64,000 bases of DNA from Dehalococcoidia bacterium (GCA_034422455.1 DAOUJQ010000004.1:45737-109736), one strand, 5' to 3'; counted from the first letter of the stretch, positions 1,531 through 55,319 are shown. The notes: a model not told the origin generated them from the letters alone. Made by a program: numbers and translations.

Positions 1531-1554
1531 GGAACGACTCCTCTTGTCAAGAAA

Positions 1555-7278: not shown

Positions 7279-7862
7279 CGGAGGGCTCGTATTTCGAGGG
7301 CCGCCGCATCGCCGTTTACGGGCCCACTGGGAGCGGCAAGACGGGCTTGGGGTCGGAGGTCGCCCGGCGGCTGGCCCTGCCTCACATTGATTTGGACCAG
7401 GTGCACTGGCGGCCGGGATGGCGGGGCAAGCCGCGCGACCAGTTCCGCGCCGAGCTCACGTCATGGTTGGACGCCCGCCCCGGAGGTTGGGTCTGCACCG
7501 GCAATTACGCCAGCGTCGTAGGCGACCTCGTCATGTCCGGCGCCGACACCATCCTCTGGCTGCGGCTGCCGTTCCGGGTCGTGTTCTGGCGCCTCCTCCA
7601 GCGAACGCTCCACCGCTCTTTCACGTGGGAGCTGCAGTGGGGCACCAACCGCGAGACCCTTCGCAAGGCCTTCCTGAGCCGGGACTCCATCCTGCTGTGG
7701 TGCGTCACCCACTGGCGGGCCCACCACCGCCACGTCAGTGCGGCGCTCGCCGGGCACGCGGGCGATGCGGAGGTGATTGTGCTGCGGTCGCCGCGACAGG
7801 TGCGGGGTTGGTTGGAACGTGTGCCGCGCCTTGACCCTCTTCAGCGCGCGGCGATACACTGA
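7269..7862 (+). CDS. P-loop NTPase, adenylate-kinase-like (topology-modulation FlaR-like family)
   Basis: 197-aa ORF with GPTGSGKTG Walker A near the N-terminus. GTG start (7269 or 7275) overlaps the sbcC stop, so the two are likely translationally coupled. Confidence 0.65.
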   Translation: MGVTEGSYFEGRRIAVYGPTGSGKTGLGSEVARRLALPHIDLDQVHWRPGWRGKPRDQFRAELTSWLDARPGGWVCTGNYASVVGDLVMSGADTILWLRLPFRVVFWRLLQRTLHRSFTWELQWGTNRETLRKAFLSRDSILLWCVTHWRAHHRHVSAALAGHAGDAEVIVLRSPRQVRGWLERVPRLDPLQRAAIH

Positions 7863-7873
7863 AAACACCCCAA

Positions 7874-7947
7874 TGCCGAGTGGTGCAGCGGTAGCACGCG
7901 TGGCTCTGGACCACGAAACCTTGGTTCGAATCCAGGCTCGGCAGCCA
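7874..7947 (+). tRNA. tRNA-Gln (anticodon CTG), CCA encoded
   Basis: Hand fold: acceptor TGCCGAG/CTCGGCA, D stem GTGC/GCAC, anticodon stem CGTGG/CCACG with loop CTCTGGA, T arm CTTGG-TTCGAAT-CCAGG, then G-CCA. Confidence 0.9.
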
Positions 7948-8010
7948 CACCATTCTCCCCGTTGACTGCCCTTGCCCGCGTATGTCTGGGGGTCGAAATG
8001 ACGACGACGC

Positions 8011-9054
8011 TCAGTCGGCCGCCGTGGGAGCGGGATAGAACTGCGCGCAAAAGGCACGAAAGGGCATGATCTCGCCGTCTGAACGACACAGACGAGGCCG
8101 GGAACGGTAGCGCTTGCGGCTCCATATTGTCCGGTCCTGCCTGACGTCCTGGTTCTGTTGGATGACCATGAACCGATTGATGATGGGGGCGCGGAGCCGT
8201 CTCGGAAGAAAACCCAGGCCGGCAATCAACCGCTTCGGATTGCGGACCTCGTGCACTTGAGAGACCAGCGTCATGTCGATGAGCCTGCCGTCGACCGGCG
8301 TCGCCAGCACCCACAAGCGCATGTCCATGCCGATGCTGTGCTCCCGTATCTCCACGAAGGAATAGCCCAGCCCAACGACGTGGGTGAGCGCAGAGACTTC
8401 AATGGTAAGCTTGGCTAACCTTGCCACCTTCCGCACGCTCACAAAGTCGATCTGGCCTTCCAGCCGGGGCCCGTCCACCGTAATCGTCCCCGCGCGGCCC
8501 ACGCTGTCGTACCCATGCACGTACCGAAAGTGCGCCAGGTCCACGGAGTTCTCGGTGGTCTCTTGGGGATGACCGGGGAAGCGAAGCGTCCTTACCTTGT
8601 AATCGCACCAGCCGTCTTGCGCCGGGTCTTCCTCCGGCAGATGCCACTGCGGCTCCCTGTCGTTGATCCCCCACCACGCAAAGATCAGCCCGCAGACGTC
8701 CCGTGACGGAAAGACCCGCAGTTTCGCAGTCCTGGGCGCTTCGGCATACGGAGTGGCCACACACTGGCCGGTCGTATCGTACACATATCCGTGGAAGGGA
8801 CAGACGAGCCGTCCGTCCTGGATGCGGCCCCCCGCGGCGGGGCCGAGATAGGAGCCCAGGTGCGGGCAGTAGGCCTCCGCGACACAGACCTGCCCGTTAT
8901 TGTCACACCAGACGACGATGTCTTCGCCCATCCATGTCTTCTGGATGAGCCCGGCTTTCTGGATTTCCTTGCGGCTCGTGACAAAGTACCAGCCCTCGGG
9001 GAATGGGGAAGGGGCCTGTGCGGTGGCAGTTTCCCTGCCGGCCTGTTGCATCAT
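8011..9054 (-). CDS. Rieske non-heme iron oxygenase (distinct, shorter family than the four phthalate-type paralogs)
   Basis: 347-aa ORF. Rieske CPHLGSYL...CPFHGYVY. Catalytic iron motif ENSVDLAHFRYVHG (E-x3-D-x2-H-x4-H). Divergent from the P450 fusion gene. Confidence 0.85.
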   Translation of the reverse strand: MMQQAGRETATAQAPSPFPEGWYFVTSRKEIQKAGLIQKTWMGEDIVVWCDNNGQVCVAEAYCPHLGSYLGPAAGGRIQDGRLVCPFHGYVYDTTGQCVATPYAEAPRTAKLRVFPSRDVCGLIFAWWGINDREPQWHLPEEDPAQDGWCDYKVRTLRFPGHPQETTENSVDLAHFRYVHGYDSVGRAGTITVDGPRLEGQIDFVSVRKVARLAKLTIEVSALTHVVGLGYSFVEIREHSIGMDMRLWVLATPVDGRLIDMTLVSQVHEVRNPKRLIAGLGFLPRRLRAPIINRFMVIQQNQDVRQDRTIWSRKRYRSRPRLCRSDGEIMPFRAFCAQFYPAPTAAD

Positions 9055-9190
9055 GCCTCATCCTCGCCCATGGCTCTGAGTGACGGTCTCCTTGCCCCGA
9101 CTTCCACCGTAAGCTACACTTCATTGAAAATGCGTCGCTATGGTCGGCAATGTTAGAGGGTAGCATGGTGGTTGATGGGGAGCAAGGCGA

Positions 9191-11218
9191 ATGACCCTGA
9201 CCACAGATAGCGTAACAACCCAACCACTGGGATTGCCGGAAGAGCTCATCCTCATGCTCCTCAATGAGGAGAACGGCTACTTCCACCAGGTGCCGGGCTG
9301 GAACTTGAATTGCGCCATTATTGGCGCCGTCCTGGCGGAACTCTCTCTCCAGTCTCGCATTGACACGGACGTCAATTCCCTCTTCCTTCTGGACGCAAAA
9401 GAGACGGGCGATCCCGTCCTCGACTCCGTCCTGAAGGAGATTGCGTCGGATCCGGTCCAGCGAAACGCCCAGTACTGGATAGAACGGCTTGCGCACCTTG
9501 CGGATGAGGCCGTAGACCAGACCTTGGACCGTTTGGTCCATATGGGGATCCTGGAGTACCACGAGGGCGAATTCTGGACGCTCTCCCGCACGGTTTGGCA
9601 GACGGAGCTCTACACCGGCAGTCAGGAAGGAACGGCGGTAGAGTTCGTCAAGACTCGCATCGGCAAGGTGATCCTGGCGGGCGAGATTCCCGATCCCAGA
9701 GATGCGATCATCATTGCCCTGATCAACACGTGTGATGTCTTCCGCTTCATCTTCCCGCTGGACGAGGAGGCGGAAGCGCGCATCGATCTCATCAGCAAGC
9801 TGGACGTGATCGGCCGGTCCATTGCTGAGGCGGTCTCCCACAACCTGGCCGGCCCGTTGCTTCGACGAGCCGCGTTCTCCAAGGCCATTCCAACCGTCTC
9901 GCTGCGCAAGCTGCTGTTCAGCCCTCACATCCGCACCGGCAACATTCCCGCGCTCTTTGCCGGCTTTGCGGAAGAATACGGCCCGGTGTTTCAAATCCGC
10001 CCCCCGTTTCGGAAGCCCATGTACTTCCTGGCTGGGGTTGAGGTAAACCGGTGGGTGCACCGGCATGGCCGCATGTACCTGCGGGCAAGGGAATACTTCA
10101 GCGACATGGAAAAGGCCTACGGCGCGGCCGGGCTGATACCCTCCTTGGATGGCGCCGACCATTTTCGGCTGCGGAAGGCGATGCACCCGGGGTATGCCCG
10201 CGGGAGGCTGGAAGAGAACCTGGACCGGCTCTACCAACACGCGCGACAGCACATGACCGGGTGGACGGTGGGCGCTTCCTATACGGCAGTTACCATGTGT
10301 CGGCGGCTTGCCAATGCGCAGGTCTCGCAGCTCACCCTGAGCATCGACTCGCAGGACATCAGCGACGATCTGATAGAATTCAAGGAACGGGCCTTGGTCT
10401 CCCTGGTGGCGAAGATCATGCCGAAGTTCATGATGAACACCCCGGGCATGAAACGTCGGAGCAAGACCGTCGCTGAGGTGCTGCGCCGGGTCCAGAGCAC
10501 TCACACGTCCGCCCAGCGGGCCTACGCTCCCCGGGACTTTGCGGACGAGATGCTGAGCCTGCATGCGAGCGACCCGCAGTTCCTCCCCGAGTCCAACCTG
10601 AGCTTCATGCTTTCAGCGCCGCTGCTTGCCAGCATGTACGTCGGCGACATGCTGGGCTTCGCGCTCTACATGATGGCGTCCCAACCGGATCTCTACAGCA
10701 GGATTCGCGGTGAAGCCGATGCCCTGTTCGACAACGGCGACCCGGACAGCGAGGACTTCAGCCTCTCCGCCATCGACGTCACCCACCGCTTTCTCATGGA
10801 ATGCCTGCGCATGTATCCCACCATCACAATGTCCATTCGAAACGTCATGAACACCTTTGTGATCCAGGGCTACGAGATGCCCATCGGAGCGCGGGTCCAC
10901 ATCGCCACCACGGCCCCGCATTACATGAAGGACGTCTTTCCTGACCCCCACAGGTTTGACATTGACCGCTATCTGCCTCCGCGCAATGAGCACATCAGCC
11001 CCGGGTATTCCCCGTTTGGGCTGGGTACGCATACGTGTCTCGGCTCCCGGTGGGTGGAATTGCAGCTTGCCATCAACGTGTTGATGATCGCGCACTACTT
11101 CACCATTGAGGTGTCCCCTGCGAATTACAAGCTCCGGCTCAGTCCCTTTCCGTCCATGTCCGTCAGCAAGAAGCTGAAGTTCCGCATCGCAGAGCGGAGG
11201 CGTGAGCTAAACGTCTAA
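9191..11218 (+). CDS. Fusion protein: N-terminal GPP34/GOLPH3-like domain plus C-terminal cytochrome P450
   Basis: 675-aa ORF. The N-terminal ~215 aa (LPEELILMLLNEENGYF...IIGAVLAELSLQSRI) match the GPP34-family pattern. The C-terminal ~445 aa carry ExxR (ECLRMYP) and the heme-thiolate loop FGLGTHTCLGSRW. Confidence 0.85.
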   Translation: MTLTTDSVTTQPLGLPEELILMLLNEENGYFHQVPGWNLNCAIIGAVLAELSLQSRIDTDVNSLFLLDAKETGDPVLDSVLKEIASDPVQRNAQYWIERLAHLADEAVDQTLDRLVHMGILEYHEGEFWTLSRTVWQTELYTGSQEGTAVEFVKTRIGKVILAGEIPDPRDAIIIALINTCDVFRFIFPLDEEAEARIDLISKLDVIGRSIAEAVSHNLAGPLLRRAAFSKAIPTVSLRKLLFSPHIRTGNIPALFAGFAEEYGPVFQIRPPFRKPMYFLAGVEVNRWVHRHGRMYLRAREYFSDMEKAYGAAGLIPSLDGADHFRLRKAMHPGYARGRLEENLDRLYQHARQHMTGWTVGASYTAVTMCRRLANAQVSQLTLSIDSQDISDDLIEFKERALVSLVAKIMPKFMMNTPGMKRRSKTVAEVLRRVQSTHTSAQRAYAPRDFADEMLSLHASDPQFLPESNLSFMLSAPLLASMYVGDMLGFALYMMASQPDLYSRIRGEADALFDNGDPDSEDFSLSAIDVTHRFLMECLRMYPTITMSIRNVMNTFVIQGYEMPIGARVHIATTAPHYMKDVFPDPHRFDIDRYLPPRNEHISPGYSPFGLGTHTCLGSRWVELQLAINVLMIAHYFTIEVSPANYKLRLSPFPSMSVSKKLKFRIAERRRELNV

Positions 11219-11257
11219 TGCGCATGGGATAGTCCGAGCGGCAGAGACGGAGAGGGC

Positions 11258-12298
11258 CTACAAGGGCTTGCGCGCCAGAAAACAATACAACGGCGTGAAG
11301 ATCCCTGCCCTGCCTCCTGCGACATAGGCGTGGGCGGTACGGTCCAGCAGCCCGGCGACGTCCGTGGATCCCTTAGGGAACATCCCCAGCGCCTCAACCA
11401 GCCTGGATAGCCCAATGATCGCTTTGCGGCCTAGCGGAATCCTGCGCAGCCCCGTTGCCGAGCCCCTTGTCCCCCCGGTCTCCATGGGGCGATACCACGG
11501 CTTGGTCGAACCGTTCTCCCTTAAGGCCCGGTCCAGCCCCTCGATAACCTCAAACCCCGTTGCTTCAAGCGTCCGGTCCACCTCGCCGGTTGTCGCAATA
11601 TCATGCAGCGCGATGCCCTGCATGAGGTCCCGCTTGATGGCGCGGTGTCGACTGTCATCAGCATCGAATTTGTCCGTCATGCACATTTCCTGGCCCCAGA
11701 AGAGGGCTCCGGGTTTCAGCACGCGGTAGATCTCCGCGAACGCACCAGCCTTGTCCGGCGCATGGCACGTCGATTCGATCGCGTACCCCCGGTCGAAGGT
11801 GTTGTCCGCGATGGCGCCCATGTCCATGAAGCTGCACGCATGGTAGTCGACCATGTGATCGATCCCCGCCTCAACGTTCAGCTGTTTCGCCTTCTCCAAC
11901 TGGACTTCACTGCTATTGACCCCGGCGACCCTGACACCGGCCTCCCGGACCACGCGGCGCATTGGGCCGCCGATCCCGCAACCGACATCGATCACCGACA
12001 TGCCCTCACGCAGCTCCAACTTGGAGATCATCAGCCGCTGGTGCCGGATCTTGGAGTCTTCCAGGCTCTCCTGGGGCGATAGCGGCGCGAAGTGAAGGGA
12101 TTCGCCCCAACCGAACACCATGAACTCGCTGCAAAGGTCGTAATATTCCTTGACGGTTTCGGCGTGGTCATACCCCGTGGCGCCGGAATCCTGCGGGGAC
12201 GCCCTGTCGAGCCAGCCGGAGAAGCGTTGCACGCGATGGCGGACATCCGAGCCGCGGTAAGCGGTCTTCAACCCGGCGGACAGCTTGCGGAGTTGCAT
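11258..12298 (-). CDS. Sterol 24-C-methyltransferase (ERG6/SMT) family SAM-dependent methyltransferase
   Basis: 346-aa ORF that is colinear by eye with yeast Erg6. Matching blocks (this protein vs Erg6): YYDLCSEFMVFGWGESLHFAP vs YYNLVTDFYEYGWGSSFHF; VIDVGCGIGGP SAM motif; YAIESTCHAPD vs YAIEATCHAP; EIYRVLKPG; C-terminal AGGRAGIFTPLYCFLARKP vs AGGKSKLFTPMMLFVARKP. Confidence 0.85.
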   Translation of the reverse strand: MQLRKLSAGLKTAYRGSDVRHRVQRFSGWLDRASPQDSGATGYDHAETVKEYYDLCSEFMVFGWGESLHFAPLSPQESLEDSKIRHQRLMISKLELREGMSVIDVGCGIGGPMRRVVREAGVRVAGVNSSEVQLEKAKQLNVEAGIDHMVDYHACSFMDMGAIADNTFDRGYAIESTCHAPDKAGAFAEIYRVLKPGALFWGQEMCMTDKFDADDSRHRAIKRDLMQGIALHDIATTGEVDRTLEATGFEVIEGLDRALRENGSTKPWYRPMETGGTRGSATGLRRIPLGRKAIIGLSRLVEALGMFPKGSTDVAGLLDRTAHAYVAGGRAGIFTPLYCFLARKPL

Positions 12299-12315
12299 GA
12301 GCCCCCTTCCCGGGA

Positions 12316-14787
12316 CTAGCCCGGTTCCCCCTCGTGGCGCCGGTGCACGGCGTCGATGGCCGTGTCCAGCTCGTCGGCCCAGCGCAGCAGGTTGGAGCGC
12401 AGCCGCATGTTCTGGTAGGCGCCCCAGACCGTCATGGCCGGCGGCACCACCAGGACGGAGACGATCAGCGCGTAGGCGATGGTGATGGCCGCCGTTATGC
12501 CGAACTGCGCGGACGCCGCCAGCGGCGAGAACACCAGCACGCCGAGTCCGAGGGCCGTTGTCATTGCGGACCCCAGGAGCGCCGAGCCGGTAATCCTGAG
12601 GGTCCGGACCGCGGCCCTTTCCGGGTCGCGCACCTGCGCGTACTCTTCCCTGTAGCGATGGATGATGTGGATGGTGTAGTCCACCCCGATTCCTATCGAC
12701 AGCGCCGTGATGATCGACGTGATCATGGTGTAGGGGATGTCCAGCAGCGCCATGGTGCCCAGGACGCAGATGAGGACCAGGACGATGGGCCCCACCGCGA
12801 TGATCGCCAGCGCGGGCTGACGCACGGTCACCCAGAAGAAGAGGGCGAGGACGGTCAGGGCGGCGGCGACCGTCGTGGTGAAGGCCTCGGTCTGGTTCTC
12901 GGTGATGGCGTCGGTCACGTTGACGGAGATGACGGTGTTGGATGTCACCGTAATGGCGTCGTCGTCACCCTGCCAGAGGGCCTCGACCTCCCCTTGGAGC
13001 GCCTTGGTCTTGGCGGGGGAAGTTACGAACACGGGGAACTGGAACAGCATTGTGTCGATGCCGTTGGGGTCGTTGATGAGGAGGTGCCCGAAGGCCGGGT
13101 CCCGGTCATTGAGCTTGTCGAGGAAATCCTGCATCAGCGACGGGTCCAGCTGGACCCCGGCGTGGGCCTCCCGAAAGAGCGCGGCAAGCTCCGCGTCGTA
13201 CTTGTCGCCGGGCGCCCCGCTGTCGTTGGTCCAGTCATCGATGAGCAGCTGGTACGACGTTACTATGGGCCCGGCGGCCGCGGCCGGGCGCAAGCGCTCG
13301 ACCTCGAAGGCCGCGGTCAGGTCCTGCAGGTTCAGGAGGGTGCGGGTTTCCGTCGCCTCCGCCTTCAGGAGCACGCTGGCCAACTCCGTTGAGCCGCCGA
13401 CGGCCGCATCCAGCGAGGCCATGTCCTGGAATACGGTCCCGTTCCTGGGCAGAATGTCGCGGATATGGAACTCGGACTCAAGCCCTCTCGCTGAGAACCC
13501 AAGGGCAACGGTCACCGCCAGGACAACGATGATGTAGGGCGCGGGCCGGCGGGTGACGCTCCTGCCCAACATCTCCGCCAACCGATCGACGCCGGGCAGC
13601 GCGGTGGAGATTGGGCGGGAAGGCCGGAGCGTCCCGCGACGTTCCCGGCGGCGGTCGATGATCGTCCGGGCGGCCGGCACAAGCGTCAGCATGACGATCA
13701 GGCTCATGGTCACGCCAAGGCCGCCGATGATGCCGAAGTCCTTAGCGATGTCGATAGGCGAGAAGCGGTTCGCTAGGAGGCTGACCGTCGTGGTGACGGC
13801 GGCCAGCAGGAGGGGGACGGCGACGATCCTCAGTCCCGCCCGAACGGCCGTCAGCACCTGCGCCCCCGTGTTCCGCTGCTCCCGGTAGTGCGAGACGATC
13901 TGGATGGCGTAGTCCACGGTGAGGCCAATGATGATGATCGGCACCAGCGTCGTAAGCTGGTTCGGCGGGCCGACGAGGCCCAGGGCGTTCGGGCCGAGCC
14001 ATCCCTCCGCTCCGACAATCCAGATGATCGCCATGAGCAGTCCGGCGAGGGTGAGTAGCAAGTCGCTGATGGTGCGCATGAACAGCAGGATCAGGGCGGT
14101 AATCAGCAGGAACGCCAGTCCGATCAAGGGCGCCATGCCCTCCTCGGTGGCCTTCAGGTACTCGTCTTCAACGATGATGAAGGAGATGGTGCTTGCCTGC
14201 AGGGGACCCTCGCTGGCAAGGGCAAGCTCGTGGATCTTCCGCTCGACATCGTTGATCCGCTCGTCGCCGGTCTCGCGCAGCCGGATGGTGCCGACGGCGA
14301 CCGGCGTGCCGTCGGCATCGTCGCCGGTCAGGGCGTCGAGGGCCAGCTGGAGCTCCGGCGGAACGGAGGCCGAATCGATGGCCGCCTGCGTGACCGAACC
14401 GAAATCTTCCACTTGCAGCAGGGCCTTGTACAGGAACGAGGGCGCGATGAGCGGATCGTTAGCGGTGAGGAGCTCGCCCACGCCCGGTTCCGCGAGGACG
14501 CGGTTGAACAGAGTGTCCATCTGCGAGAGGCCGGCCGGAGTTATCCCCTCTCCGCGGAAGAGGACTGTCGTTACGCGGGCCTCGCCCGAGTCCGAGAAGA
14601 GCCTGTCAATCTCCTTGAGGGCCTGGGCGACGGCGTTGCCTTGGGGGAGGATTTCCGCCGTCTCCCGCGGCTGCGCTCTGTGCACGGCGCCATAGCCCAA
14701 TGCCACGGTGATGATGAGCAACACAAGCAGCGTCACCCACGGACGGGCCGTCACCAGCCTGCTCAACACATCGAGTAGTCGGCTCAT
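12316..14787 (-). CDS. MMPL/RND-superfamily membrane transporter (HpnN-like lipid exporter type)
   Basis: 823-aa ORF with two hydrophobic 6-TM blocks, each preceded by a soluble loop domain, which is the usual MMPL/RND layout. It ends 17 nt upstream of the SMT start, so the two are likely co-transcribed. Confidence 0.85.
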   Translation of the reverse strand: MSRLLDVLSRLVTARPWVTLLVLLIITVALGYGAVHRAQPRETAEILPQGNAVAQALKEIDRLFSDSGEARVTTVLFRGEGITPAGLSQMDTLFNRVLAEPGVGELLTANDPLIAPSFLYKALLQVEDFGSVTQAAIDSASVPPELQLALDALTGDDADGTPVAVGTIRLRETGDERINDVERKIHELALASEGPLQASTISFIIVEDEYLKATEEGMAPLIGLAFLLITALILLFMRTISDLLLTLAGLLMAIIWIVGAEGWLGPNALGLVGPPNQLTTLVPIIIIGLTVDYAIQIVSHYREQRNTGAQVLTAVRAGLRIVAVPLLLAAVTTTVSLLANRFSPIDIAKDFGIIGGLGVTMSLIVMLTLVPAARTIIDRRRERRGTLRPSRPISTALPGVDRLAEMLGRSVTRRPAPYIIVVLAVTVALGFSARGLESEFHIRDILPRNGTVFQDMASLDAAVGGSTELASVLLKAEATETRTLLNLQDLTAAFEVERLRPAAAAGPIVTSYQLLIDDWTNDSGAPGDKYDAELAALFREAHAGVQLDPSLMQDFLDKLNDRDPAFGHLLINDPNGIDTMLFQFPVFVTSPAKTKALQGEVEALWQGDDDAITVTSNTVISVNVTDAITENQTEAFTTTVAAALTVLALFFWVTVRQPALAIIAVGPIVLVLICVLGTMALLDIPYTMITSIITALSIGIGVDYTIHIIHRYREEYAQVRDPERAAVRTLRITGSALLGSAMTTALGLGVLVFSPLAASAQFGITAAITIAYALIVSVLVVPPAMTVWGAYQNMRLRSNLLRWADELDTAIDAVHRRHEGEPG

Positions 14788-15000
14788 TCGTCGTCATTCC
14801 TTCTGAGGAGTCCGGAGAAACCGCATCCTTCGCGGCTGAATCTGCCGGCATCAGACCGCCACACCTGCAACCGCACCCGTAACGGCGCTACGGTAGCATG
14901 GGGAGCAAAGGCGGACAAGACTCGGGAAAGCGCCAGCCGGCAATGGACACGCCGGCCCCCTGGCGCCCTTCACCGGGCGCCCTGCTCTTTCATGAGCGGA

Positions 15001-16038: not shown

Positions 16039-16140
16039 GCATTGACTTTGGTGACATCGCGCGCGCCTTGCGGTATCATACCGCAACCGTGCGAGGAGCC
16101 ACGGGGCGTCTCGCTTTGTTGGTACAAGGAGAGTGTTGCC

Positions 16141-17430: not shown

Positions 17431-17444
17431 CGTACTGGATGACT

Positions 17445-33663: not shown

Positions 33664-33905
33664 TACCGGCCCGGAGAGCCGTTGATTGCCGGACACGCCG
33701 GCAGTCAAGGTGGTGATGTGTATCTGCAAGTATAGCTGTCGGCATGCCCCTGCGTCAATTTGAGGTGGGCCCCGGCCAAGTGCATCGGGGTGGTGGGCGG
33801 ACCGGTGAAGGGTCGCTGCTCCGAGCTGCTCCCGCTTTACTTGCACGCTGTTGCTGGCCAGAATATGCACAGGGATGTCGCAGTTGCTTTCGAGGTATAT
33901 CGCAC

Positions 33906-34964
33906 GTGCCTGCTTCACCAACCGGCTCGGCCCCGCCTCCTTCGCCGGACTTCCTGGGAAAGTACCAGGAGCCCGTGCAAGCCGCCCTCCGTGACCGGCT
34001 CGCCGGATTCCCCCCACCCATTGGCACGATGCTCCGGTACCACATGGGATGGGAGTCGCCGTCGGGCGTTCCGGAAGAGTACGCTTCCGGCAAGCGGCTC
34101 CGTCCCGCCCTTTGCCTCTTCACCTGCGAGGCCTATGGTGGCGACATAGCTGACGCGCTGCCCGCTGCCGTGGCCCTGGAGCTGATCCATAACTTCTCCC
34201 TCATCCACGACGACATCCAGGACCAGGACCTGGAACGGCACGGGCGGGGCACCGTCTGGTCGATCTGGGGCAAGCCCAGCGGCGTGGTGGCCGGCAACGC
34301 CCTCCGTACCGTCGCCGACGCCACTGTCTACGATCTCCGTCAAGCCGGGGCGTCCTCGCAGGCCGTGCTGGAGACCACTCAAACCCTCACCGGCCGGTGT
34401 CTGGAACTGGTGGAGGGTCAGCGCATGGACCTCAGCTTTGAGGACCGTCTCAACGTCACGCCTGACGAGTACCTGGACATGGTCGCCCGCAAGACCGGCG
34501 CCCTGGTGGAGGCGGCGATGCGCATGGGTGCGCTCCTCGGCGGCGCTTCGATGGAGCAGGCAGACCGGGCCGCTCGCTGCGGCAGGCTGCTGGGGCTCAC
34601 CTTCCAGGCCCGTGACGACGTTCTGGGCATCTGGGGCGACCCCGTGCTTATGGGCAAGGCCACCGGCGCCGACATTCGCAGACGCAAGAAGTCGTTGCCC
34701 GTGGTCTTCGGGTTCACGCAGTCAACCGGTGAGGCAAAAGAACGCCTGGAACGCATCTACGGCGCCGACGAGGCGATGGGTGAGGCCGAGGTTTCCGAGG
34801 TGATGGGCATCCTCGATCGTCTCGACGCCCTGGAATACGCGCAGTCGGTGGCGGAGGAGAAGAGTGCCCTCGCCATGGGGGTCGCTCGGGAAGCGGGGCT
34901 CTCCGGCGAAGCCCTGGAGGAGCTACAGGACCTTGCGCATTTCTTTGCTCACCGGGACCACTAG
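33906..34964 (+). CDS. Polyprenyl diphosphate synthase (FPP/GGPP synthase family)
   Basis: First Asp-rich motif LIHDDIQD and second motif FQARDDVLGIWGD. The start is uncertain: GTG 33906 is chosen, and the track ORF begins at 33744. Confidence 0.8.
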   Translation: MPASPTGSAPPPSPDFLGKYQEPVQAALRDRLAGFPPPIGTMLRYHMGWESPSGVPEEYASGKRLRPALCLFTCEAYGGDIADALPAAVALELIHNFSLIHDDIQDQDLERHGRGTVWSIWGKPSGVVAGNALRTVADATVYDLRQAGASSQAVLETTQTLTGRCLELVEGQRMDLSFEDRLNVTPDEYLDMVARKTGALVEAAMRMGALLGGASMEQADRAARCGRLLGLTFQARDDVLGIWGDPVLMGKATGADIRRRKKSLPVVFGFTQSTGEAKERLERIYGADEAMGEAEVSEVMGILDRLDALEYAQSVAEEKSALAMGVAREAGLSGEALEELQDLAHFFAHRDH

Positions 34965-35768
34965 ATGACTTTGGACCTGCGCCCGGGCGTCAACATCGCC
35001 ATCCTGGTGGCCATTCCGCAGGAGGCTCAAGGGGTCCTCAGAGCCGGACAATGGCGGCCCGTCCAGTTGCCGGGTACCGTGGCGGCCTATGTTGGCGAGG
35101 GTGCGGAGGCGGGCGCCTTCCTGGCCGTGAGCGGCGTAGGCCCGGCGATGGCAACTGATGCCACGAAGGCGGTACTGGACGCTTACAGCCCCCACGCCGT
35201 GTTGTCGATGGGCTACGCGGGAGGGCTTGCCACCGGCCAGCGCCCCGGCGATCTCGTTGTCGCGGAGTCGCACGCTCCTATGCCAGGCGGTGAGCCCCAA
35301 CCGCCGTCTCTTCCGGCGATCGTGACAACTGACCCCGGCATGCTGGAAACCGCACTGCGCGTGGCGGCCCGGCTCGGGCTGCGCCACAACGTGGGGCCGA
35401 TGCTGGCGTCAAACAGGGTGCTGGCCGGCTCAGAGGAAAAGCTGCGGATGGGAGCGGAAACCGGTGCGGTGGCTGTGGATATGGAGAGCTATTGGATGGG
35501 GGTGGTTTGCCAGGAGAGTGGAGTGCCGTTTGTCACAGCCCGGGTGGTGGTGGACACGGCTGAACATACCATTCCTGTCTCTGTAGCGCGGAGGGTGATG
35601 GGCGCCGGCCTCCGCAGTCCCTGGCCGCTTGCGCTGAGAGTGGCGTTGGCGCCGTGGGGGGCCCCGGGACTGGTGCGGTTAAGCCGGGCGGCAGCGAAAG
35701 CCCGCGCCACGCTGACAGCCTTTGGGTTGGCGTGGCTGGGCGGCATGAAAAAGGCCCCGGGCGAATGA
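34965..35768 (+). CDS. hpnG: Nucleoside phosphorylase-family protein (hopanoid-associated HpnG-like)
   Basis: 267-aa PNP/UDP-family fold (AILVAIPQEA..., AVDMESY). The ATG directly abuts the upstream stop. The HpnG assignment rests on its position next to hpnCDE. Confidence 0.6.
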   Translation: MTLDLRPGVNIAILVAIPQEAQGVLRAGQWRPVQLPGTVAAYVGEGAEAGAFLAVSGVGPAMATDATKAVLDAYSPHAVLSMGYAGGLATGQRPGDLVVAESHAPMPGGEPQPPSLPAIVTTDPGMLETALRVAARLGLRHNVGPMLASNRVLAGSEEKLRMGAETGAVAVDMESYWMGVVCQESGVPFVTARVVVDTAEHTIPVSVARRVMGAGLRSPWPLALRVALAPWGAPGLVRLSRAAAKARATLTAFGLAWLGGMKKAPGE

Positions 35769-35846
35769 ATGCGCCATCGCAGTCTGCGCGGGTGATGGTC
35801 CGGCATCGTTGTTGCGTGGAAGTAGCCGTTGCGCGACACTGAGGCT

Positions 35847-36737
35847 ATGGTCAAAGCATCAACCGCTGCGCTGGAAATCCCCGCGGCGCTGGAGTCGGCA
35901 TACCGCGATTGCGTGGATCTGGCGAAGTCGCACTACGAGAACTTCACCGTCGCGCTGAGGTTCCTCCCCAAGCCGCTGCTGCCGCACGTGTCGGCCATCT
36001 ACGCCTACTGCCGGGGCGTCGACGACCTGGGTGACGAGGCCGACGGCGACCGTCTCGCGCTGCTGGACGCCTGGGAAGCAGACCTCGACCTGTGCTATTC
36101 GGGAACGCCGGCGGCGCCCCACCTGCAGGCGCTGCAGCACACCATTCGTGCGTTCTCCATCCCCCCGGAGCCCTTCCACAAGCTGATCACCGCCAACCGC
36201 ATGGACCAAACGCAGCGCCGATACGCCACCTACGCTGACGTGCTGCACTACTGCGAGCACTCCGCAAACCCCGTCGGCTTCCTCTACCTCCTGCTGTTCG
36301 GCTACGACGACGAGGAGCGCCGGCGGCTCTCCGACTACACCTGCACCGCGCTGCAACTGGCGAACTTCTGGCAGGACGTGCGCCGAGACTGGGGCAAGGG
36401 CCGAATCTATCTGCCGCAGGAGGACATGGAGCGGTTTGGCTTCTCGGAGGAGGCGTTGGCGCGGGGGGTCTGCAACCGGCCCTTCCGGGACCTAATGGTC
36501 TTCCAGGTTGAGCGCACCCAGGCGCTGTTCGAGCAGGGGCTTCCGCTCGTGGAGATGGTCGACGGCGTGTCGCGGCTGCACATCAAGCTGTTCAGTCTGG
36601 GCGGGATGCGCGTGTTGGACGCCATACGGTCGCAGGGCTACGATGTGCTCTCCAAGCGGCCGGTGGTCACCAAGCGCCGCAAGGCGTGGCTGCTGCTCAA
36701 GACCTACCTCGGCATGAAACTGACCCGCCAGATCTAG
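35847..36737 (+). CDS. hpnC: Hydroxysqualene synthase HpnC (squalene/phytoene synthase family)
   Basis: Start ATG 35847. The SHYENFTVALRFLP...IYAYCRGVDDLGDE pattern is typical of HpnC. Confidence 0.8.
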   Translation: MVKASTAALEIPAALESAYRDCVDLAKSHYENFTVALRFLPKPLLPHVSAIYAYCRGVDDLGDEADGDRLALLDAWEADLDLCYSGTPAAPHLQALQHTIRAFSIPPEPFHKLITANRMDQTQRRYATYADVLHYCEHSANPVGFLYLLLFGYDDEERRRLSDYTCTALQLANFWQDVRRDWGKGRIYLPQEDMERFGFSEEALARGVCNRPFRDLMVFQVERTQALFEQGLPLVEMVDGVSRLHIKLFSLGGMRVLDAIRSQGYDVLSKRPVVTKRRKAWLLLKTYLGMKLTRQI

Positions 36738-36752
36738 GGTGGGGAGCACGAC

Positions 36753-37652
36753 GTGGAGCGGGGCATGGCAGAAGGGACAGTCCTGGAGGAGGCCTACGCC
36801 CACTGCCAACGCGTGACAAAGGCAGAGGCGAAGAACTTCTACTATGCCTTTGTCACGCTGCCAAAGGCCAAGCGGCGAGCAATCTACGCCGCCTACGCCT
36901 TCTGCCGGCTCTGCGACGACATCGCCGACGAGCCGCTCCCACTCGACGAGAAACAACGCAAGCTGCGCGAGGTCGACGCGGCCCTCGAACGGGCGAGGGA
37001 CGGCGAGCCGGACGGCCCCGTGTACAGCGCGCTGGCACACGCCGTACACGAGTACGGCATCCCGTGGGAAGACCTTGCAGAGGTGGCCCGCGGCGTCGAA
37101 ATGGACCTCACCCTCGACCGGTATGAGACTTTCGATGACCTGGCGTCGTACTGCTACCGGGTCGCGTCCGTCGTGGGCATCATCTGCATTCACATCTTCG
37201 GGTTCTCGGACCCTGCGGCGAGGGGGTACGCCATCGACCTGGGCCTCGGCATGCAGCTCACCAATATCCTGCGGGACCTCCGCGAAGACGCGGAGATGGG
37301 GCGGGTCTACCTGCCGCAGCAAGAGTTGCGCAGATTCGGGTATCCTGAGGAAGCGCTCATGGCGGGCGAGGTCAACGACGAGTTCATCAGCCTGATGCGT
37401 TTTCAGGTCGCCCGGGCTCGCGGCTATTTCGACAGCGGCAAGCTGCTGCTCCCCCTGCTGCCGGTGCGCACGCGGGCGTGCCCGGCGGTGTTGGGCGGGC
37501 TGTACAACCGAGTACTGGACCGCATTGAAGATAACGGGTACAACGTCTTCGAGCGCCGAATCGCCCTTTCGACGAGAACAAAGCTGTTGCTGGCGGTACG
37601 CCTTTGGTTGCAGAGTTACGCCCCCCTGAAGCAGATCGCCGCTGCGTGGTGA
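36753..37652 (+). CDS. hpnD: Presqualene diphosphate synthase HpnD (squalene/phytoene synthase family)
   Basis: The KNFYYAFVTLP...AYAFCRLCDDIADE pattern is typical of HpnD. GTG start 36753, or ATG 36765. Confidence 0.8.
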   Translation: MERGMAEGTVLEEAYAHCQRVTKAEAKNFYYAFVTLPKAKRRAIYAAYAFCRLCDDIADEPLPLDEKQRKLREVDAALERARDGEPDGPVYSALAHAVHEYGIPWEDLAEVARGVEMDLTLDRYETFDDLASYCYRVASVVGIICIHIFGFSDPAARGYAIDLGLGMQLTNILRDLREDAEMGRVYLPQQELRRFGYPEEALMAGEVNDEFISLMRFQVARARGYFDSGKLLLPLLPVRTRACPAVLGGLYNRVLDRIEDNGYNVFERRIALSTRTKLLLAVRLWLQSYAPLKQIAAAW

Positions 37653-39004
37653 TCGGCGGCGGGCTTGCCGGCCTCGCCGCCGCCTGCGAGTTGGCGGACC
37701 GAGGCGTCACTGTCACCCTGATCGAAAGGCGGCCATACCTCGGCGGCCGGGCCTTCTCCTTCCGTGACCCTGAAACCGGCGAGCACGTCGACAACGGGCA
37801 GCACGTCTACCTGGGTTGTTGCACGGCCTACATCAATTTCCTGCGACGTCTAGGCATATTCGAGCGCACCACGCTGCAGCGCCGGATGCGGGCGGTCATC
37901 GTTGACCGCAACGGCAGGCGGGGCACGCTGAGCGCCGCGCCCCTGCTTCCCTCGCCGCTGCACCTCCTGCCGTCCTTCCTGACCTACCCGCACCTGGGCT
38001 TGATCGAGAAGCTCCGCGCGGCTTCCGCCATGCTCGCCGTCATGCGCACGGACCGCGACAAGCACCGGGAGGCGCTGGAAGCCGAGAGCTTCCACTCCTG
38101 GCTGGTACGGCACGGACAGTCGCCCCGGGCCATTGCCGCCCTCTGGGACCTGCTGACATTGCCTGTATTCAACGACACCGTGGAGGCCGTCAGCGCCTAC
38201 ATGGGATTGATGTTCTTCCAGGACGGCATGCTCGCCGGCCGGCACAGCGCAGACATCGGCTACTCGCGTGTCGGGCTCACCGAGCTGGTGGGCGACGCCG
38301 CCGTGAGCTATGTCGAGGAGCGAGGCGGGCAGGTGCGCACTGGCACGTCGGTGACGGGCATCGCCGTCGAGGAGGGCGCGGTTACCGGCGTGGTCGTTGG
38401 TGACGAGACCATTGCGGCCGACGCCGTGGTGCCTGCCGTTCCATGGGACGCGTTGCCAAACCTCTTCTCACCTGACGTCGCGGCCGGCGCGTCGATTGCG
38501 ATGGCGGCCGGCCTGGAGTGGGCGCCCATTCTGAACGTGCACGTGTGGTACGACCGCCCCGTTATAGACGAGGCGTTCCTCGCCGTGTTGGACAGCCCGC
38601 TGCAGTGGGTGTTCAACCGGAGCCGCATCCAGGGAAACCCCGGTCCGCAGCAGCACCTGTGCGTCTCCGTGAGCGGCACATGGGAGCATGTGCGCATGAA
38701 CAGGACAGATCTGCGCGATCTATTCTTGGGCGAGATGGCGAGAGTCTTCCCGGCTGCCCGGGACGCCATCGTGGAAGGATTCACCGTGGTCAGGCAGCCC
38801 TCCGCGACCTTCCGGTGCACTCCGGGCGCCCAGCGGCTGCGCCCGCCGCAGCGGACGTCCATCAGAGGCTTGGTCCTCGCCGGCGATTGGACGCAGACCG
38901 GATGGCCTGCCACCATGGAGTCGGCCGTACGCAGCGGCATGCTGGCCGCGGCAGAAGCGTCGCTCCAGCTAGACCGCAAGGAACGGCGCTGGATTTCACC
39001 TTGA
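37646..39004 (+). CDS. hpnE: FAD-dependent hydroxysqualene dehydroxylase HpnE (amine-oxidase family)
   Basis: Dinucleotide-binding VVIGGGLAGLAAA...ERRPYLGGRA. GTG at 37646/37649 overlaps the hpnD stop (GTGGTGA). The track ORF start 37604 is also possible. Confidence 0.8.
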   Translation: MVIGGGLAGLAAACELADRGVTVTLIERRPYLGGRAFSFRDPETGEHVDNGQHVYLGCCTAYINFLRRLGIFERTTLQRRMRAVIVDRNGRRGTLSAAPLLPSPLHLLPSFLTYPHLGLIEKLRAASAMLAVMRTDRDKHREALEAESFHSWLVRHGQSPRAIAALWDLLTLPVFNDTVEAVSAYMGLMFFQDGMLAGRHSADIGYSRVGLTELVGDAAVSYVEERGGQVRTGTSVTGIAVEEGAVTGVVVGDETIAADAVVPAVPWDALPNLFSPDVAAGASIAMAAGLEWAPILNVHVWYDRPVIDEAFLAVLDSPLQWVFNRSRIQGNPGPQQHLCVSVSGTWEHVRMNRTDLRDLFLGEMARVFPAARDAIVEGFTVVRQPSATFRCTPGAQRLRPPQRTSIRGLVLAGDWTQTGWPATMESAVRSGMLAAAEASLQLDRKERRWISP

Positions 39005-52934: not shown

Positions 52935-54341
52935 TCAGCGCCGCCTGCGCGCCTTCGCCTTCGCCTTCTTAAAAGCCCAGCCGTACATGATGCTCCCGTA
53001 GTAGTTGAACGTCCGCCTCGCCTGCGCGTCCTCGAAGGGGTAGTCGGCCCCCAGCTGCCGCGCCGTGGCCAGCCCGCTGACAAAGCAGGTCTCCTGGCTG
53101 TTGACCAGCGTGTGGGCGCCGCAGTGCCACGTCCGCCGCCTGCCCTGGATGAAGCGGAAGAGCTGGATGACCCACGCCACGTGGCGGACGTCGTGCACGA
53201 TGTGCTGGAACCACCACCGCTTGATCACCTTGTCGTCATCTATCCTGCTGACCGGGTTGTAGGTCACCAGGCACGGCTTGTCCGACCGTTTGGCCCACGG
53301 CTGCTGGTTGTGCATGATGTAGGTGATCTCGTAGTTGTCGGGCCGCGCGCCGTACTGCTCGACGTGGTTGCTGCGCGTCTCCAGCGCCCGCACCTCATCG
53401 TCGGGCAGCACGGAGGCGTCCGAGTGCACGACCGTGTGGTTGTGGAGCTCGCTCTCATAGCGGATCGACGAGAGGATGTACCGCTCCATGAACGAGGGCT
53501 TGTCGAGCGCCATCAGCGTCTGGTTGGCGTTGCACGCGAAAATCACCTCGTCAAACGCCTCCTCGACCCCGTCCTCGTCCTCCACCACGACATGCGTCCG
53601 ATGGCGGTGCACCTTCCTGACGGGCCGGTTGACGTAGATCTTGTCCCGAAAGCCCGCGGACAGGTTCTCGTAGATCCGCCGGGTCCCCTGGTCCCACGTC
53701 CGCATGGGCGTAGCCACCTCGATGTCGAAGAACTCCAGGTACCGGGAAAACAGCGACGCCGGCATGTCGAACACGTTGGTCGCCATGAGGAAGTTGACGA
53801 ACATGGGCTTGAGGACCTTGTACCTGAAGTCCGGGGACAGGCCCGCCACGTTGAGGACGGCGCCCATGCTGATGTAGTTGAAGGGGTTGAGGGCGTTCAC
53901 CAGCCTCGACTGGGAGCGGGTCAGCCGCCCGAACCAGTGCAAGCGCTTCAGGACCCGCTGGAACTTCGCGATGTCGTCCCGGAGCTGGCGCCTGATGTCG
54001 GAGTCGAAATCGTGGGCGTATATCTGGCCGCGGTACCTGACGCTGTAGTTGAACCTGGTCTCCAGCAGCTCGATGCCGAACTGCTCCATCAACAGCAGGA
54101 TGTGCTGGTACACCGACGGAATGAGGGCGGTGACGGAGATGTCGAAGGGGACCGAGCTGCCGTCATCCTGCGGCATGTCGGCGGTGATCGCGTTGCCGCC
54201 AATCCGGTCTTGCGCCTCGAACAGCCGGAAGTCAAACCGGTCCGGGTGTTGGCCCAACGCCCACGCGGCCCCAAGGCCCGAAACGCCTCCGCCGACGATG
54301 GCTATCCGCCTCGGCCCCGCTGCAGTCCCCGTTTTCGCCAT
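52935..54341 (-). CDS. NAD(P)/FAD-dependent oxidoreductase (amine-oxidase-like fold)
   Basis: 468-aa ORF with an N-terminal IAIVGGGVSGLGAAWAL...FEAQDRIGGNA dinucleotide-binding motif. Confidence 0.8.
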   Translation of the reverse strand: MAKTGTAAGPRRIAIVGGGVSGLGAAWALGQHPDRFDFRLFEAQDRIGGNAITADMPQDDGSSVPFDISVTALIPSVYQHILLLMEQFGIELLETRFNYSVRYRGQIYAHDFDSDIRRQLRDDIAKFQRVLKRLHWFGRLTRSQSRLVNALNPFNYISMGAVLNVAGLSPDFRYKVLKPMFVNFLMATNVFDMPASLFSRYLEFFDIEVATPMRTWDQGTRRIYENLSAGFRDKIYVNRPVRKVHRHRTHVVVEDEDGVEEAFDEVIFACNANQTLMALDKPSFMERYILSSIRYESELHNHTVVHSDASVLPDDEVRALETRSNHVEQYGARPDNYEITYIMHNQQPWAKRSDKPCLVTYNPVSRIDDDKVIKRWWFQHIVHDVRHVAWVIQLFRFIQGRRRTWHCGAHTLVNSQETCFVSGLATARQLGADYPFEDAQARRTFNYYGSIMYGWAFKKAKAKARRRR

Positions 54342-54572
54342 AACCTCGCAATCCTACTAGCATCGATTGCCGGTGGCTAGTGGAATGCCGACCACGCCGC
54401 CCTGGGCAGGGCCCCGATACGGCGAAGAACAACGCATGGCTGTTGTTGCTATAGCGCCAACGGTTGCTTAGAGTGTGTCATGTGCCGGCAGGCCGATGGC
54501 GAGCACGGCGCCAAGCCGCGACACCGTCAGCGGCCGGTGCGGCACGAACACAGCCGGACTGGGAAATGGCAG

Positions 54573-55319
54573 GTGAACGTGTTCAAATCGCTGGGACTTG
54601 GGCTGAAGGCAATCCTGGTGGCGGCAATTCTCCTCGCATACGCAGCCGCGTGCGGCTCGGACCCCGTCGAACCTACCCCCACGCCTGAACCCGAACTGTC
54701 CATGGAAGACCTGCTCGCCAGCGCCGGCGAGAAACTCGCCGCCATCACGACGGCCAAGTTCCGGATGAGCGACGAAACGCAGTCCGGCACAAAGTTCTTT
54801 GGCGCAACCCTCAAGACGGTCGAGGGGGACATCAGGTCCCCGGAGGCCGCCAGGATGGTGGTGGACGTTGAAGCGCCCGCGATGGGGTTTGTACAGATCG
54901 AAATAGTGGCAGTCGGCGAACAGGCCTTCATGAAGTTCTCGCGGGACGCGCCGTGGCTCCCCATCCCGCTGGACCAGGTGCCGTTCAACTTCGGAGGAAT
55001 AGGCGTCATCCTGAGCGAAATCCTCCCGGTCATGCAGGACCCCGCCATAACCGGCCGGGAGTCCATTGGCGACTTCCAGACAATCCGCATCGAGGGGAAC
55101 GTGCTGTCTGAAGACATGAGCGGCCTCATCTCATCGGTGGACCCCGGTCACCCAATCATCCTGACCTACTGGTTTGACGACGTGGAGCACACCATACGCC
55201 AGCTCAGAATCGACGGGCAGCTCTTCGACGACGACGCTCCTGAAACAACCCGCCTGGTGAACATGGAGATCAACGTCCCCGTAGACATCCAGCTCCCAGA
55301 GGTAGCCCCCGGGCCGTGA
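54573..55319 (+). CDS. LppX/LprAFG-family lipoprotein (LprG-like lipid-binding protein)
   Basis: GTG start at 54573 or 54579. Signal peptide with lipobox AAAC. The body fits the LprG-family pattern (KFRMSDETQ..., VEGDI...). Its stop overlaps the start of the MFS gene. Confidence 0.7.
   Translation: MNVFKSLGLGLKAILVAAILLAYAAACGSDPVEPTPTPEPELSMEDLLASAGEKLAAITTAKFRMSDETQSGTKFFGATLKTVEGDIRSPEAARMVVDVEAPAMGFVQIEIVAVGEQAFMKFSRDAPWLPIPLDQVPFNFGGIGVILSEILPVMQDPAITGRESIGDFQTIRIEGNVLSEDMSGLISSVDPGHPIILTYWFDDVEHTIRQLRIDGQLFDDDAPETTRLVNMEINVPVDIQLPEVAPGP

Follow-up and report, generated by a model that had tools for sequence, protein, structure and literature searches.

A sterol methyltransferase clade with an altered Region I and its gene module in bacterial sponge symbionts: a candidate pathway for tailoring and export of a sterol-like lipid

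Here we analysed a 64,000-nt stretch of DNA from a Dehalococcoidia bacterium (DAOUJQ010000004.1:45737-109736; in the following the window, from whose first letter all coordinates are counted). It carries a gene for an Erg6-type sterol methyltransferase (SMT) next to genes for a GPP34-cytochrome P450 fusion, a Rieske oxygenase and an RND transporter. Three points appear to be new. The SMT belongs to a large, well-separated SMT clade with an altered sterol-binding Region I, here termed SLHF, and SMT, GPP34-P450, Rieske oxygenase and RND pump recur jointly across phyla. The third point is a complete hpnCDE squalene operon 21 kb away. The parts as such are not new because bacterial sponge SMTs and GPP34-P450 proteins have already been described, separately; nor is this a first bacterial SMT. 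With intermediate confidence we propose that the module tailors and exports a sterol or a sterol-like triterpenoid and that it is specific to bacterial sponge symbionts. The four genes are:

8011..9054, minus strand: KshA-type Rieske non-haem-iron oxygenase (Rieske 66.6 bits, KshA_C 79.2 bits)
9191..11218, plus strand: fusion of a GPP34 (GOLPH3-like) domain and a cytochrome P450, 'GPP34_L', 675 aa (Pfam)
11258..12298, minus strand: Erg6-type S-adenosylmethionine (SAM)-dependent sterol (side-chain) C-methyltransferase, SLHF clade (Pfam, BLASTP, alignment, tree)
12316..14787, minus strand: MMPL/HAE3-type RND transporter with a sterol-sensing-like domain (Pfam MMPL 143 bits, Sterol-sensing 44.8 bits)

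The SMT and the SLHF clade

The open reading frame (ORF) of the SMT starts with ATG and codes for 346 aa. The Pfam domain Methyltransf_11 (63.4 bits) is followed by Sterol_MT_C (60.6 bits at a cut-off of 21.7; residues 282-345 at profile positions 2-65 of 66). The search for the latter domain had been proposed in an earlier note on this DNA, which had also described the protein as colinear by eye with yeast Erg6. BLASTP bore this out with 37% identity over 308 aa at E 4e-70, colinear with Erg6 65-368 (reference NP_013706.1, an exact sequence match). The blocks quoted in that note, i.e. Region I, the SAM motif, YAIESTCHAP and AGGRAGIFTPLYCFLARKP, were all located in the protein. The match lies within the limits of a published screen against Erg6 (E ≤ 1e-50, ≥ 30% identity; PMC10070321). 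A search of the PDB for a solved SMT structure returned none; the best matches were other small-molecule methyltransferases.

Relatives were collected from species-representative genomes. The closest relatives of the SMT, 75-82% identical, were found in 348 genome stretches. The best 80 of these constitute our genome sample. Almost all are metagenome-assembled genomes (MAGs) labelled Dehalococcoidia or Chloroflexota, many of them closed chromosomes of 2-4 Mb. Isolate names among the relatives (SB06xx, COS3, APA, RHO1, SAR202 bin90) presumably belong to series from sponge-microbiome studies. A scan of metagenomes (JGI/GenBank) by exact 8-mer peptides of the window SMT returned 43 loci, and all 43 contigs carry the prefixes LXNJ, LXNI, Ga0209xxx, JGIcombinedJ30088 or MKWU, the last of which we also take to be a sponge metagenome. 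LXNJ (Petrosia ficiformis), LXNI (Sarcotragus foetidus), Ga0209xxx and JGIcombinedJ30088 (both Aplysina aerophoba) are sponge metagenomes according to the supplementary table of PMC10070321. Because of the MAG labels and names of the relatives and the metagenome prefixes, the window is part of a MAG from a sponge-symbiont Chloroflexota (Dehalococcoidia). In every collection scanned the sources of the module were sponge-associated. The earlier statement that bacterial homologues are rare thus has to be given up in view of the 348 genome stretches, the 43 metagenome contigs and the functional sponge-symbiont SMTs already published (PMC10070321). Eukaryotic contamination was considered and rejected: the GC content at third codon positions (GC3) of 0.80 is typical of high-GC bacterial codon usage, the gene sits in a bacterial operon and the chromosomes measure 2-4 Mb.

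Residue conservation was examined in 108 members of the window family aligned to Erg6, the numbering of which is used throughout. In the SAM motif D125, G127, G129 and P133 are present in 108/108 and G132 in 107/108. E195 is invariant, Region III reads YAIESTCHA, G352 and F357 are kept in 107 of the 108 proteins, and W286, G333 and P359 are also essentially invariant. The SAM-binding Region II (DxGxGxxGP), Region III and the C-terminal GG..FTP motif are thus all intact in the window SMT. Because these regions are essentially invariant, the gene is, as judged by the alignment, under purifying selection.

Region I is different. In the window SMT it is FMVFGWGESLHF, i.e. F-M-V-F-G-W-G-E-S-L-H-F, and departs from the aromatic pattern F-Y-E-[YFW]-G-W-G-x-S-F-H-F. 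Y81M was found in 104/108, E82V in 87/108 and F89L in 105/108 members, and T78 is replaced by Ser, Gly or Asn. Position 83 is Phe, and position 249 is Ile in 102/108. A recent preprint lists 25 residues that are conserved in every active SMT, T78 and F89 among them, and reports that Gly249 is necessary for propylation, along with Phe at 81 and/or 83 (10.64898/2025.12.19.695621). The window SMT retains 23 of the 25 residues, T78S and F89L being the deviations, and has Ile at 249. As cited in the same preprint, replacement of Region I aromatics by Leu in soybean SMT1 abolished the second methylation (Nes et al., 2006). Region I and Ile249 therefore predict a substrate or a regiochemistry unlike those of the characterised C-24 SMTs. 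Should sterols be the substrates, one methyl addition at most is predicted and propylation is not expected. Judged by published residue rules, the SLHF SMT does not match any SMT with demonstrated activity. It is an SMT-family member by architecture that deviates in two defining residue tests, and Region I is the main caution against the designation 'sterol C-24'.

How large and how separate is this group? When 1.84 billion representative proteins were searched exhaustively with HMMER, only 250 clusters reached E ≤ 1e-30; 1457 clusters were at E ≤ 1e-30 to a divergent SLHF member. Nearly all of about 100 full-length SMT representatives keep YE[YFW]GWGxSFHF. Met or Thr at 81, a non-acidic residue at 82 and the S-L-H-F pattern were restricted, among these, to the window family and the clusters P0139, P0141 and P0142 (56, 51 and 43% identity). 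All of the best 120 relatives of P0142 have the SLHF pattern, most commonly as F-M-Q-F-G-W-N-E-S-L-H-F, and those with names are Gammaproteobacteria and Rhodospirillales MAGs. Nearby clusters outside SLHF, about 40% identical, comprise sponge Acidimicrobiia ('Ca. Poriferisocius'), Dadabacteria and rice SMT1-like proteins. A neighbour-joining tree on Kimura distances (200 bootstraps; not maximum-likelihood) recovered the clade in 200/200 replicates, and deeper nodes were unresolved. The phylogeny called for by the earlier note thus sets the clade apart as a separate SMT group and leaves its deeper placement aside. Because of the 348 species-representative matches and the 1457 clusters, SLHF seems to be the most widespread SMT clade of sponge microbiomes.

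A gene module that recurs across phyla

As described in the earlier note, the RND gene precedes the SMT on the same strand. The gap is exactly 17 nt and holds the ribosome-binding site GGAAGGGGG; the two genes are probably co-transcribed. The P450 fusion is indeed convergent with the SMT (39-nt spacer), and its fusion partner turned out to be an N-terminal GPP34 domain. The Rieske gene, also noted before and now seen to have a KshA_C catalytic domain, is divergent from the fusion with 136 nt between them. A scan for promoters and terminators from 7800 to 15100 gave counts not above shuffled expectation.

The same arrangement, MMPL and SMT on one strand, a convergent GPP34-P450 and a Rieske gene on either side, was found by tblastn in 58-64 of the 80 sampled loci at 62-73% identity (MMPL 63, P450 fusion 64, Rieske 58). 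Other neighbours in the window (SbcC, a topology modulator, an ABC ATPase) were not conserved. With synteny in about 60 of 80 species-level genomes and unconserved flanks, the four genes are a real unit. Clustering of all ORFs from the window and 126 Dehalococcoidia-type loci then gave exactly seven recurrent families; the next one was present in ≤ 8 loci:

SMT: 112 loci
GPP34-P450: 81 loci
MMPL: 68 loci
Rieske: 61 loci
Flavin adenine dinucleotide (FAD) amine-oxidase family enzyme: 41 loci
MFS transporter: 26 loci
LppX/LprG-type lipoprotein: 17 loci (25 by tblastn)

The last three families are also encoded in the window, 38 kb from the SMT (52935-56788):

52935..54341, minus strand: FAD amine-oxidase-family enzyme, LkcE-like (Amino_oxidase 61.8 bits, PDB LkcE 103 bits)
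54480..55319, plus strand: LppX/LprG-family lipoprotein, lipid carrier (LppX_LprAFG 33.5 bits)
55316..56788, plus strand: MFS transporter (MFS_1 146 bits; its start overlaps the lipoprotein gene by 4 nt)

Copies of the FAD oxidase adjoin the SMT module in 41-42 other loci (71-83% identity) and MFS copies do so in 25 loci (tblastn; 76-86%). The translated lipoprotein has a signal peptide and a lipobox (…LAYAAAC). More distantly, the FAD enzyme is also similar to PDB 2B9W, which was deposited as 'putative aminooxidase' and which we take to be the Propionibacterium acnes fatty-acid isomerase. In locus L004 and many others the three genes directly precede the Rieske gene. The compact four-gene module of the earlier note is thus a true unit and yet too small, as FAD oxidase, LprG-like lipoprotein and MFS transporter belong to it.

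Of nine further SLHF loci from other genomes (GC 44-66% in the six computed), six had the GPP34-P450 at most 10 kb from the SMT. Five contained an AcrB-type RND (PF00873), which in four immediately preceded the SMT on its strand; a membrane-fusion protein (MFP) was found in two and an outer-membrane factor (OMF) in one. Three loci had a KshA-type Rieske gene, and in two the SMT was alone. Gene orders were P450-RND-SMT (L129, L133) and Rieske-RND-SMT (L131). Identities to the window proteins were 42-65% for the SMT, 44-46% for the fusion over about 650 aa, i.e. both domains, and 40-49% for the Rieske protein. From this recurrence SMT, GPP34-P450, KshA-like Rieske and RND pump are read as the cross-phylum core. 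Several of the nine loci are from diderms, as indicated by TonB-dependent receptors and Lpt genes. The pump subfamily tracks the envelope: MMPL/HAE3 in the monoderm Chloroflexota, tripartite AcrB/MFP/OMF in diderms. Because the tripartite RND systems which replace MMPL in diderms are exporters, the swap argues by analogy for export rather than import. Of the two directions left open by the earlier note export is therefore favoured.

Three of these loci have particular surroundings. In L133, a diderm, giant eukaryote-like proteins (cadherin, fn3, sulfatase, SRCR) are encoded at 10297-17299, directly downstream of the P450-RND-SMT operon. L135, from a sponge gammaproteobacterial MAG (GCA_009837675.1), has two divergent GPP34-P450 paralogues beside a Rieske gene and an AcrB-type RND (13612-17805). 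In L131, part of a 7.4-Mb genome, a DUF1295/steroid-5α-reductase-like membrane protein (3131-4003; weak Steroid_dh) and an acyltransferase are encoded just upstream of Rieske-RND-SMT.

The fusion consists of GPP34 (113.2 bits, residues 15-216) and p450 (115.7 bits, residues 247-654), and by its N-terminal GPP34, its P450 and its sponge-symbiont origin it is a GPP34_L protein. A signal peptide is absent. In the P450 the Cys-ligand motif FGLGTHTCLG and ExxR are kept. The I-helix reads A-S-x-Y-L-G instead of the usual A-G-x-[ED]-T-T (residues about 478-486; comparison with BM3), and the Tyr is present in 75/76 fusion sequences across phyla, including L127, L129, L131 and L132. Oxygen activation might thus be atypical, or the reaction not a monooxygenation. 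Assignment as CYP51 was rejected. The best PDB matches are CYP51s (76.5-77.2 bits, E 1.5e-20), limited to the C-terminal half, and the fusion does not have the AGxHTS I-helix signature. The phosphatidylinositol 4-phosphate (PI4P) pocket of human GOLPH3 is formed by W81, R90, R171 and R174. In a weak pairwise alignment with 3KN1 (E 0.04), which leaves the C-terminal part unaligned, the Trp is kept and R90 aligns with Ile.

In the Rieske protein the motifs CPH..CPFHG and, for iron, ENSVDLAHFRYVHG are conserved. Its best PDB match is KshA (E 1.4e-25), with pairwise similarity limited to the N-terminal ~180 residues; identity with SdmA was rejected (38.6 bits against a cut-off of 600, NF052579). 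The RND protein scored in NCBIfam with HAE3 at 224.5 (cut-off 351.9), HpnN at 115.6 (751.85) and 72.1 (1100) and BstA at 35 (1400), so that BstA and HpnN were rejected as far below the equivalog cut-offs. The analogies with CYP51, SdmA and sterol RND transporters drawn in the earlier note thus hold only at the superfamily level.

The window has a GC content of about 66%. Long spurious ORFs are frequent in such DNA, and real genes were sorted by GC3. For Rieske, P450 and SMT genes GC3 is 0.78-0.80 compared with ~0.9 in neighbours, and GC dips to 0.61 over 8-12 kb. Both would fit a core module that was acquired horizontally. Two stand-alone SMT copies (L003 and L006, both CBDEGP010000002.1) are 110 kb apart on one Dehalococcoidia chromosome; L082 and L083 compare. 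One stand-alone SMT is located between tRNA-synthetase genes and an HTH_17/DNA methylase/HATPase block, which looks like a mobile or defence island. Stand-alone copies beside DNA methylase/HTH_17 genes together with the lower GC3 suggest that the SMT or the module is mobile.

Possible function of the module

The nearest characterised homologues of SMT, Rieske protein and P450 are sterol or steroid enzymes, i.e. Erg6 (E 4e-70), KshA (1.4e-25) and CYP51 (1.5e-20), which speaks for tailoring of a sterol or a similar triterpenoid. The sequences themselves show the family of each protein, its intact catalytic motifs and a gene linkage that is conserved across phyla; substrate class, order of steps, direction of transport and biological purpose are what we infer from homology and gene context. 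With SAM as donor, the SMT would C-methylate an isolated double bond in the side chain of a sterol-like lipid that resides in the membrane. GPP34-P450 and the KshA-type Rieske oxygenase would add oxygen functions, and the GPP34 domain most likely would hold the P450 at the membrane or the lipid. The RND pump might extract the product from the cytoplasmic membrane and deliver it to the cell surface or the sponge. In Dehalococcoidia LprG-like lipoprotein, MFS transporter and FAD oxidase may assist. The substrate could be a host or community sterol, or it could be made de novo from squalene, for which the window holds an operon 21 kb from the module that was absent from the earlier account:

33744..39004, plus strand: polyprenyl-diphosphate synthase, HpnG-like phosphorylase, HpnC, HpnD, HpnE (NCBIfam)

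The genes hpnCDE (35829-39004) are in operon order. HpnC scored 318.7 (cut-off 250.45), HpnD 291.4 (278.6) and HpnE 435.3 (283.05); the HpnG-like phosphorylase with 122 bits was below its cut-off of 187. Because HpnC, HpnD and HpnE all exceed their equivalog cut-offs, the bacterium is, by its gene content, able to make squalene. Possibly the operon is the precursor supply of the module; this linkage is not conserved. In other genomes hpnCDE occurred by the SMT once and partially, as an HpnD-like gene in L025. The polyprenyl synthase (33744-34964, plus strand) has 406 aa with an N-terminal extension of ~70-110 aa, and in NCBIfam it comes closest to 'family 2 encapsulin cargo protein polyprenyl transferase' (326 bits at a cut-off of 450). 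Published data on the source of the precursor cut both ways. ERG24-CYP51-LSS cyclase clusters occur in 115/537 Ircinia MAGs (~21%), including Dehalococcoidia (PMC9531527), as against 80-93% of sponge Dehalococcoidia MAGs that carry the two GPP34 forms (PMC11706023).

Several observations weigh against a role in sterol tailoring and export. The SLHF residues L89, S/G/N78, M81 and a non-acidic 82 stand against the invariant F89 and T78 of functional SMTs; the SLHF SMT may therefore be inactive on desmosterol or may act on another substrate. NCBI titles the SLHF proteins merely 'class I SAM-dependent methyltransferase'. In about 14 of the 80 loci the SMT is found without the rest of the module. 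Squalene-hopene cyclase, oxidosqualene cyclase (OSC) and squalene epoxidase were found neither among the ~45 window ORFs scanned nor in the conserved flanks of the 126 loci; for the latter two enzymes and the window, this upholds the earlier note. The P450 is without the canonical I-helix Thr and acid-alcohol pair, and a ferredoxin or reductase gene is absent from the module. A de novo sterol cluster (OSC, SQMO, CYP51, ERG24, SdmAB) beside the SMT was likewise not seen among window ORFs or recurring flank families; a CYP51-fragment query taken from the PDB alignment matched mostly short fragments.

Could the module serve detoxification and efflux, its enzymes neutralising sponge sterols or terpenoids in the symbiont membrane for expulsion by the RND pump? 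A P450, an oxygenase, a methyltransferase and an efflux pump do resemble phases I/II/III, AcrB/MFP/OMF are classic efflux systems, the module is restricted to sponge symbionts and most carriers probably lack a cyclase on the figures given above (~21% versus 80-93%). However, C-methylation of an olefin is no known detoxification reaction, the tight and conserved RND-to-SMT operon order suggests a dedicated pathway, and hpnCDE shows that the cell makes its own triterpene precursor. We regard this explanation as unlikely.

Similarly doubtful is a non-sterol substrate, i.e. methylation of a linear or non-steroidal isoprenoid such as squalene, the product of which would be processed by the oxygenases and the pump. 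SMT-like triterpene methyltransferases of Botryococcus braunii methylate squalene. The presence of hpnCDE with no cyclase in 64 kb would fit, as would a Region I that is systematically unlike that of ~100 other SMT clusters and the departure of the clade from the residue set of all sterol-active SMTs. Yet hpnCDE is unlinked to the module in other genomes, the Rieske protein is of the KshA_C type, of which the characterised members act on steroids, and conservation is complete in Region III and the C-terminal sterol-MT domain.

The proposal of sterol tailoring and export can be taken further, which is speculative and rather improbable on present sequence evidence. The SLHF SMT might carry out a non-canonical side-chain alkylation (C-26/C-27, or cyclopropanation) that underlies the 'unconventional' sterols of high-microbial-abundance sponges and 26-methyl sterane biomarkers. 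GPP34-P450 would be a membrane-tethered sterol oxygenase, symbionts of many phyla would depend on sterol remodelling and export for persistence, and bacteria would account for some of the 'sponge' sterol fingerprint.

Quite improbable, too, is the absence of a shared pathway, with GPP34-P450 as a secreted PI4P-binding effector that blocks phagosome maturation, located in a horizontally transferred 'symbiosis island'. This accords with a published hypothesis and expression data (PMC11706023) and with signs of mobility (GC3 of 0.78-0.80 versus ~0.9, SMT copies by DNA-methylase/HTH_17 genes). But a signal peptide is missing from the fusion, and P450s depend on haem and on redox partners in the cytoplasm. 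In addition, SMT and P450 stay paired down to 42% SMT identity and across rearranged orders, and GOLPH3 R90 aligns with an Ile of the GPP34 domain, in a weak alignment. Finally, steroid uptake and catabolism, in which host sterol would enter through the transporters and be attacked first by the KshA-like Rieske protein and the P450, is very unlikely in spite of KshA as best PDB match and of sponges being reported as hot spots of bacterial steroid catabolism genes (PMC5790920), since KstD, KshB, Hsa or Mce4 genes are in no flank of the 126 loci, a methyltransferase has no catabolic role and tripartite RND pumps export.

What would follow from sterol tailoring and export by symbionts? Steranes with alkylated side chains (24-isopropylcholestane, 26-methylstigmastane) serve as the earliest chemical evidence of animals, and it is a matter of dispute if their precursors come from sponge hosts or from the bacteria in them. 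The SLHF clade seems to be widespread in sponge microbiomes yet lies outside the set of active SMTs, with its substrate-binding region altered. The fixed link to two oxygenases and an exporter makes a concrete, testable pathway, and it connects the SLHF SMTs with lipid export and with GPP34-P450 as a marker of symbiosis. This would give the GPP34-P450 'symbiosis' gene a chemical account unlike the published one. If the clade is inactive on sterols, counts of 'ERG6/SMT' in sponge metagenomes overstate the bacterial capacity for sterol alkylation.

Other window features and comparison with known systems

Outside the genes discussed so far, an ORF at 46706-50242 (minus strand; 1178 aa) has good coding statistics (GC3 0.79) and no Pfam or NCBIfam match. 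Tandem Rieske + LigXa_C oxygenases of the aryl-O-demethylase type are encoded at 280-1530 and 1555-2844 (both minus strand), and Rieske + LigXa_C-like genes lie a few kb from the module in seven other loci (L004, L009, L010, L023, L041, L064, L121). ORFs 40-3030 (plus) and 8903-10564 (minus) were discarded as high-GC artefacts that overlap real genes on the other strand. ORF 15001-17529 (minus) is an over-extension to 842 aa; the real gene encodes an OppD-like ABC ATPase of ~345 aa.

The window SMT is colinear with Erg6 (37%) and plant SMT1 (EC 2.1.1.41; ~40% with the rice SMT1-like cluster P0146) across the catalytic core. It differs from them in that it is bacterial, has no N-terminal extension, carries Y81M, E82V, Y83F and F89L in Region I and belongs to a separate clade. 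The Rieske protein shares the Rieske + KshA_C architecture and intact 2Fe-2S and mononuclear-iron ligands with KshA, SdmA and Neverland-type enzymes; in contrast to KshA and SdmA, it has no KshB or SdmB partner nearby. The transporter resembles HpnN and BstA as a member of the RND superfamily with a sterol-sensing-domain-like region that is encoded by triterpenoid-modifying genes. Its scores are far below their cut-offs, however, BstB and BstC partners are absent, and in diderm relatives the pump is AcrB-type.

In mycobacteria, lprG-rv1410c encodes a lipoprotein and MFS pair for lipid export. The window pair is similar in that an LppX_LprAFG gene overlaps the MFS start, and differs in being from Chloroflexota and tied to the SMT module in 17-26 genomes.

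In vitro methylation of desmosterol has been published for SMTs from sponge symbionts and further uncultured bacteria; three of these SMTs form the 24-isopropyl side chain, and many are encoded in clusters with OSC, CYP51, ERG24 and sdmAB (PMC10070321). ERG6/SMT1 is enriched in Ircinia MAGs (PMC9531527). With the SMTs of Brown and colleagues (PMC10070321 and the preprint) the SLHF enzymes share the demosponge source (Aplysina, Petrosia, Sarcotragus), Methyltransf_11 + Sterol_MT_C, Regions II, III and IV and the C-terminal motifs. They differ in Region I (F-M-V/Q-F-G-W-x-E-S-L-H-F versus F-Y-E-Y/F-G-W-G-x-S-F-H-F), in the replacement of T78 and F89 and in Ile249 instead of Gly. The surroundings differ as well: OSC/CYP51/ERG24/sdmAB clusters there, GPP34-P450, KshA-like Rieske and RND here. 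None of the contigs tested by Brown (Ga0209021_1000146, LXNJ01000389, LXNJ01004423, LXNI01004480/01006544/01016685, JGIcombinedJ30088_10000835/10003303/10020976) was among the 43 metagenome loci of the exact 8-mer scan. Because the T78/F89 rule is broken, the clade would contain no active enzyme of Brown & Welander; a relative may be among the tested SMTs and would then be one of the inactive ones.

GPP34_L comprises 656 proteins that were described as exclusive to sponge symbionts of many phyla and as expressed in A. aerophoba; evasion of phagocytosis was proposed as their role, in a text that mentions neither sterol, methyltransferase, MMPL nor lipid (PMC11706023). A literature search of incomplete coverage found no paper that links GPP34 to sterols or SMTs. 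The window fusion has the same two-domain architecture, sponge-symbiont origin and Dehalococcoidia host as the published GPP34_L. What sets it apart is its constant location beside genes for an SMT, a Rieske oxygenase and an RND pump.

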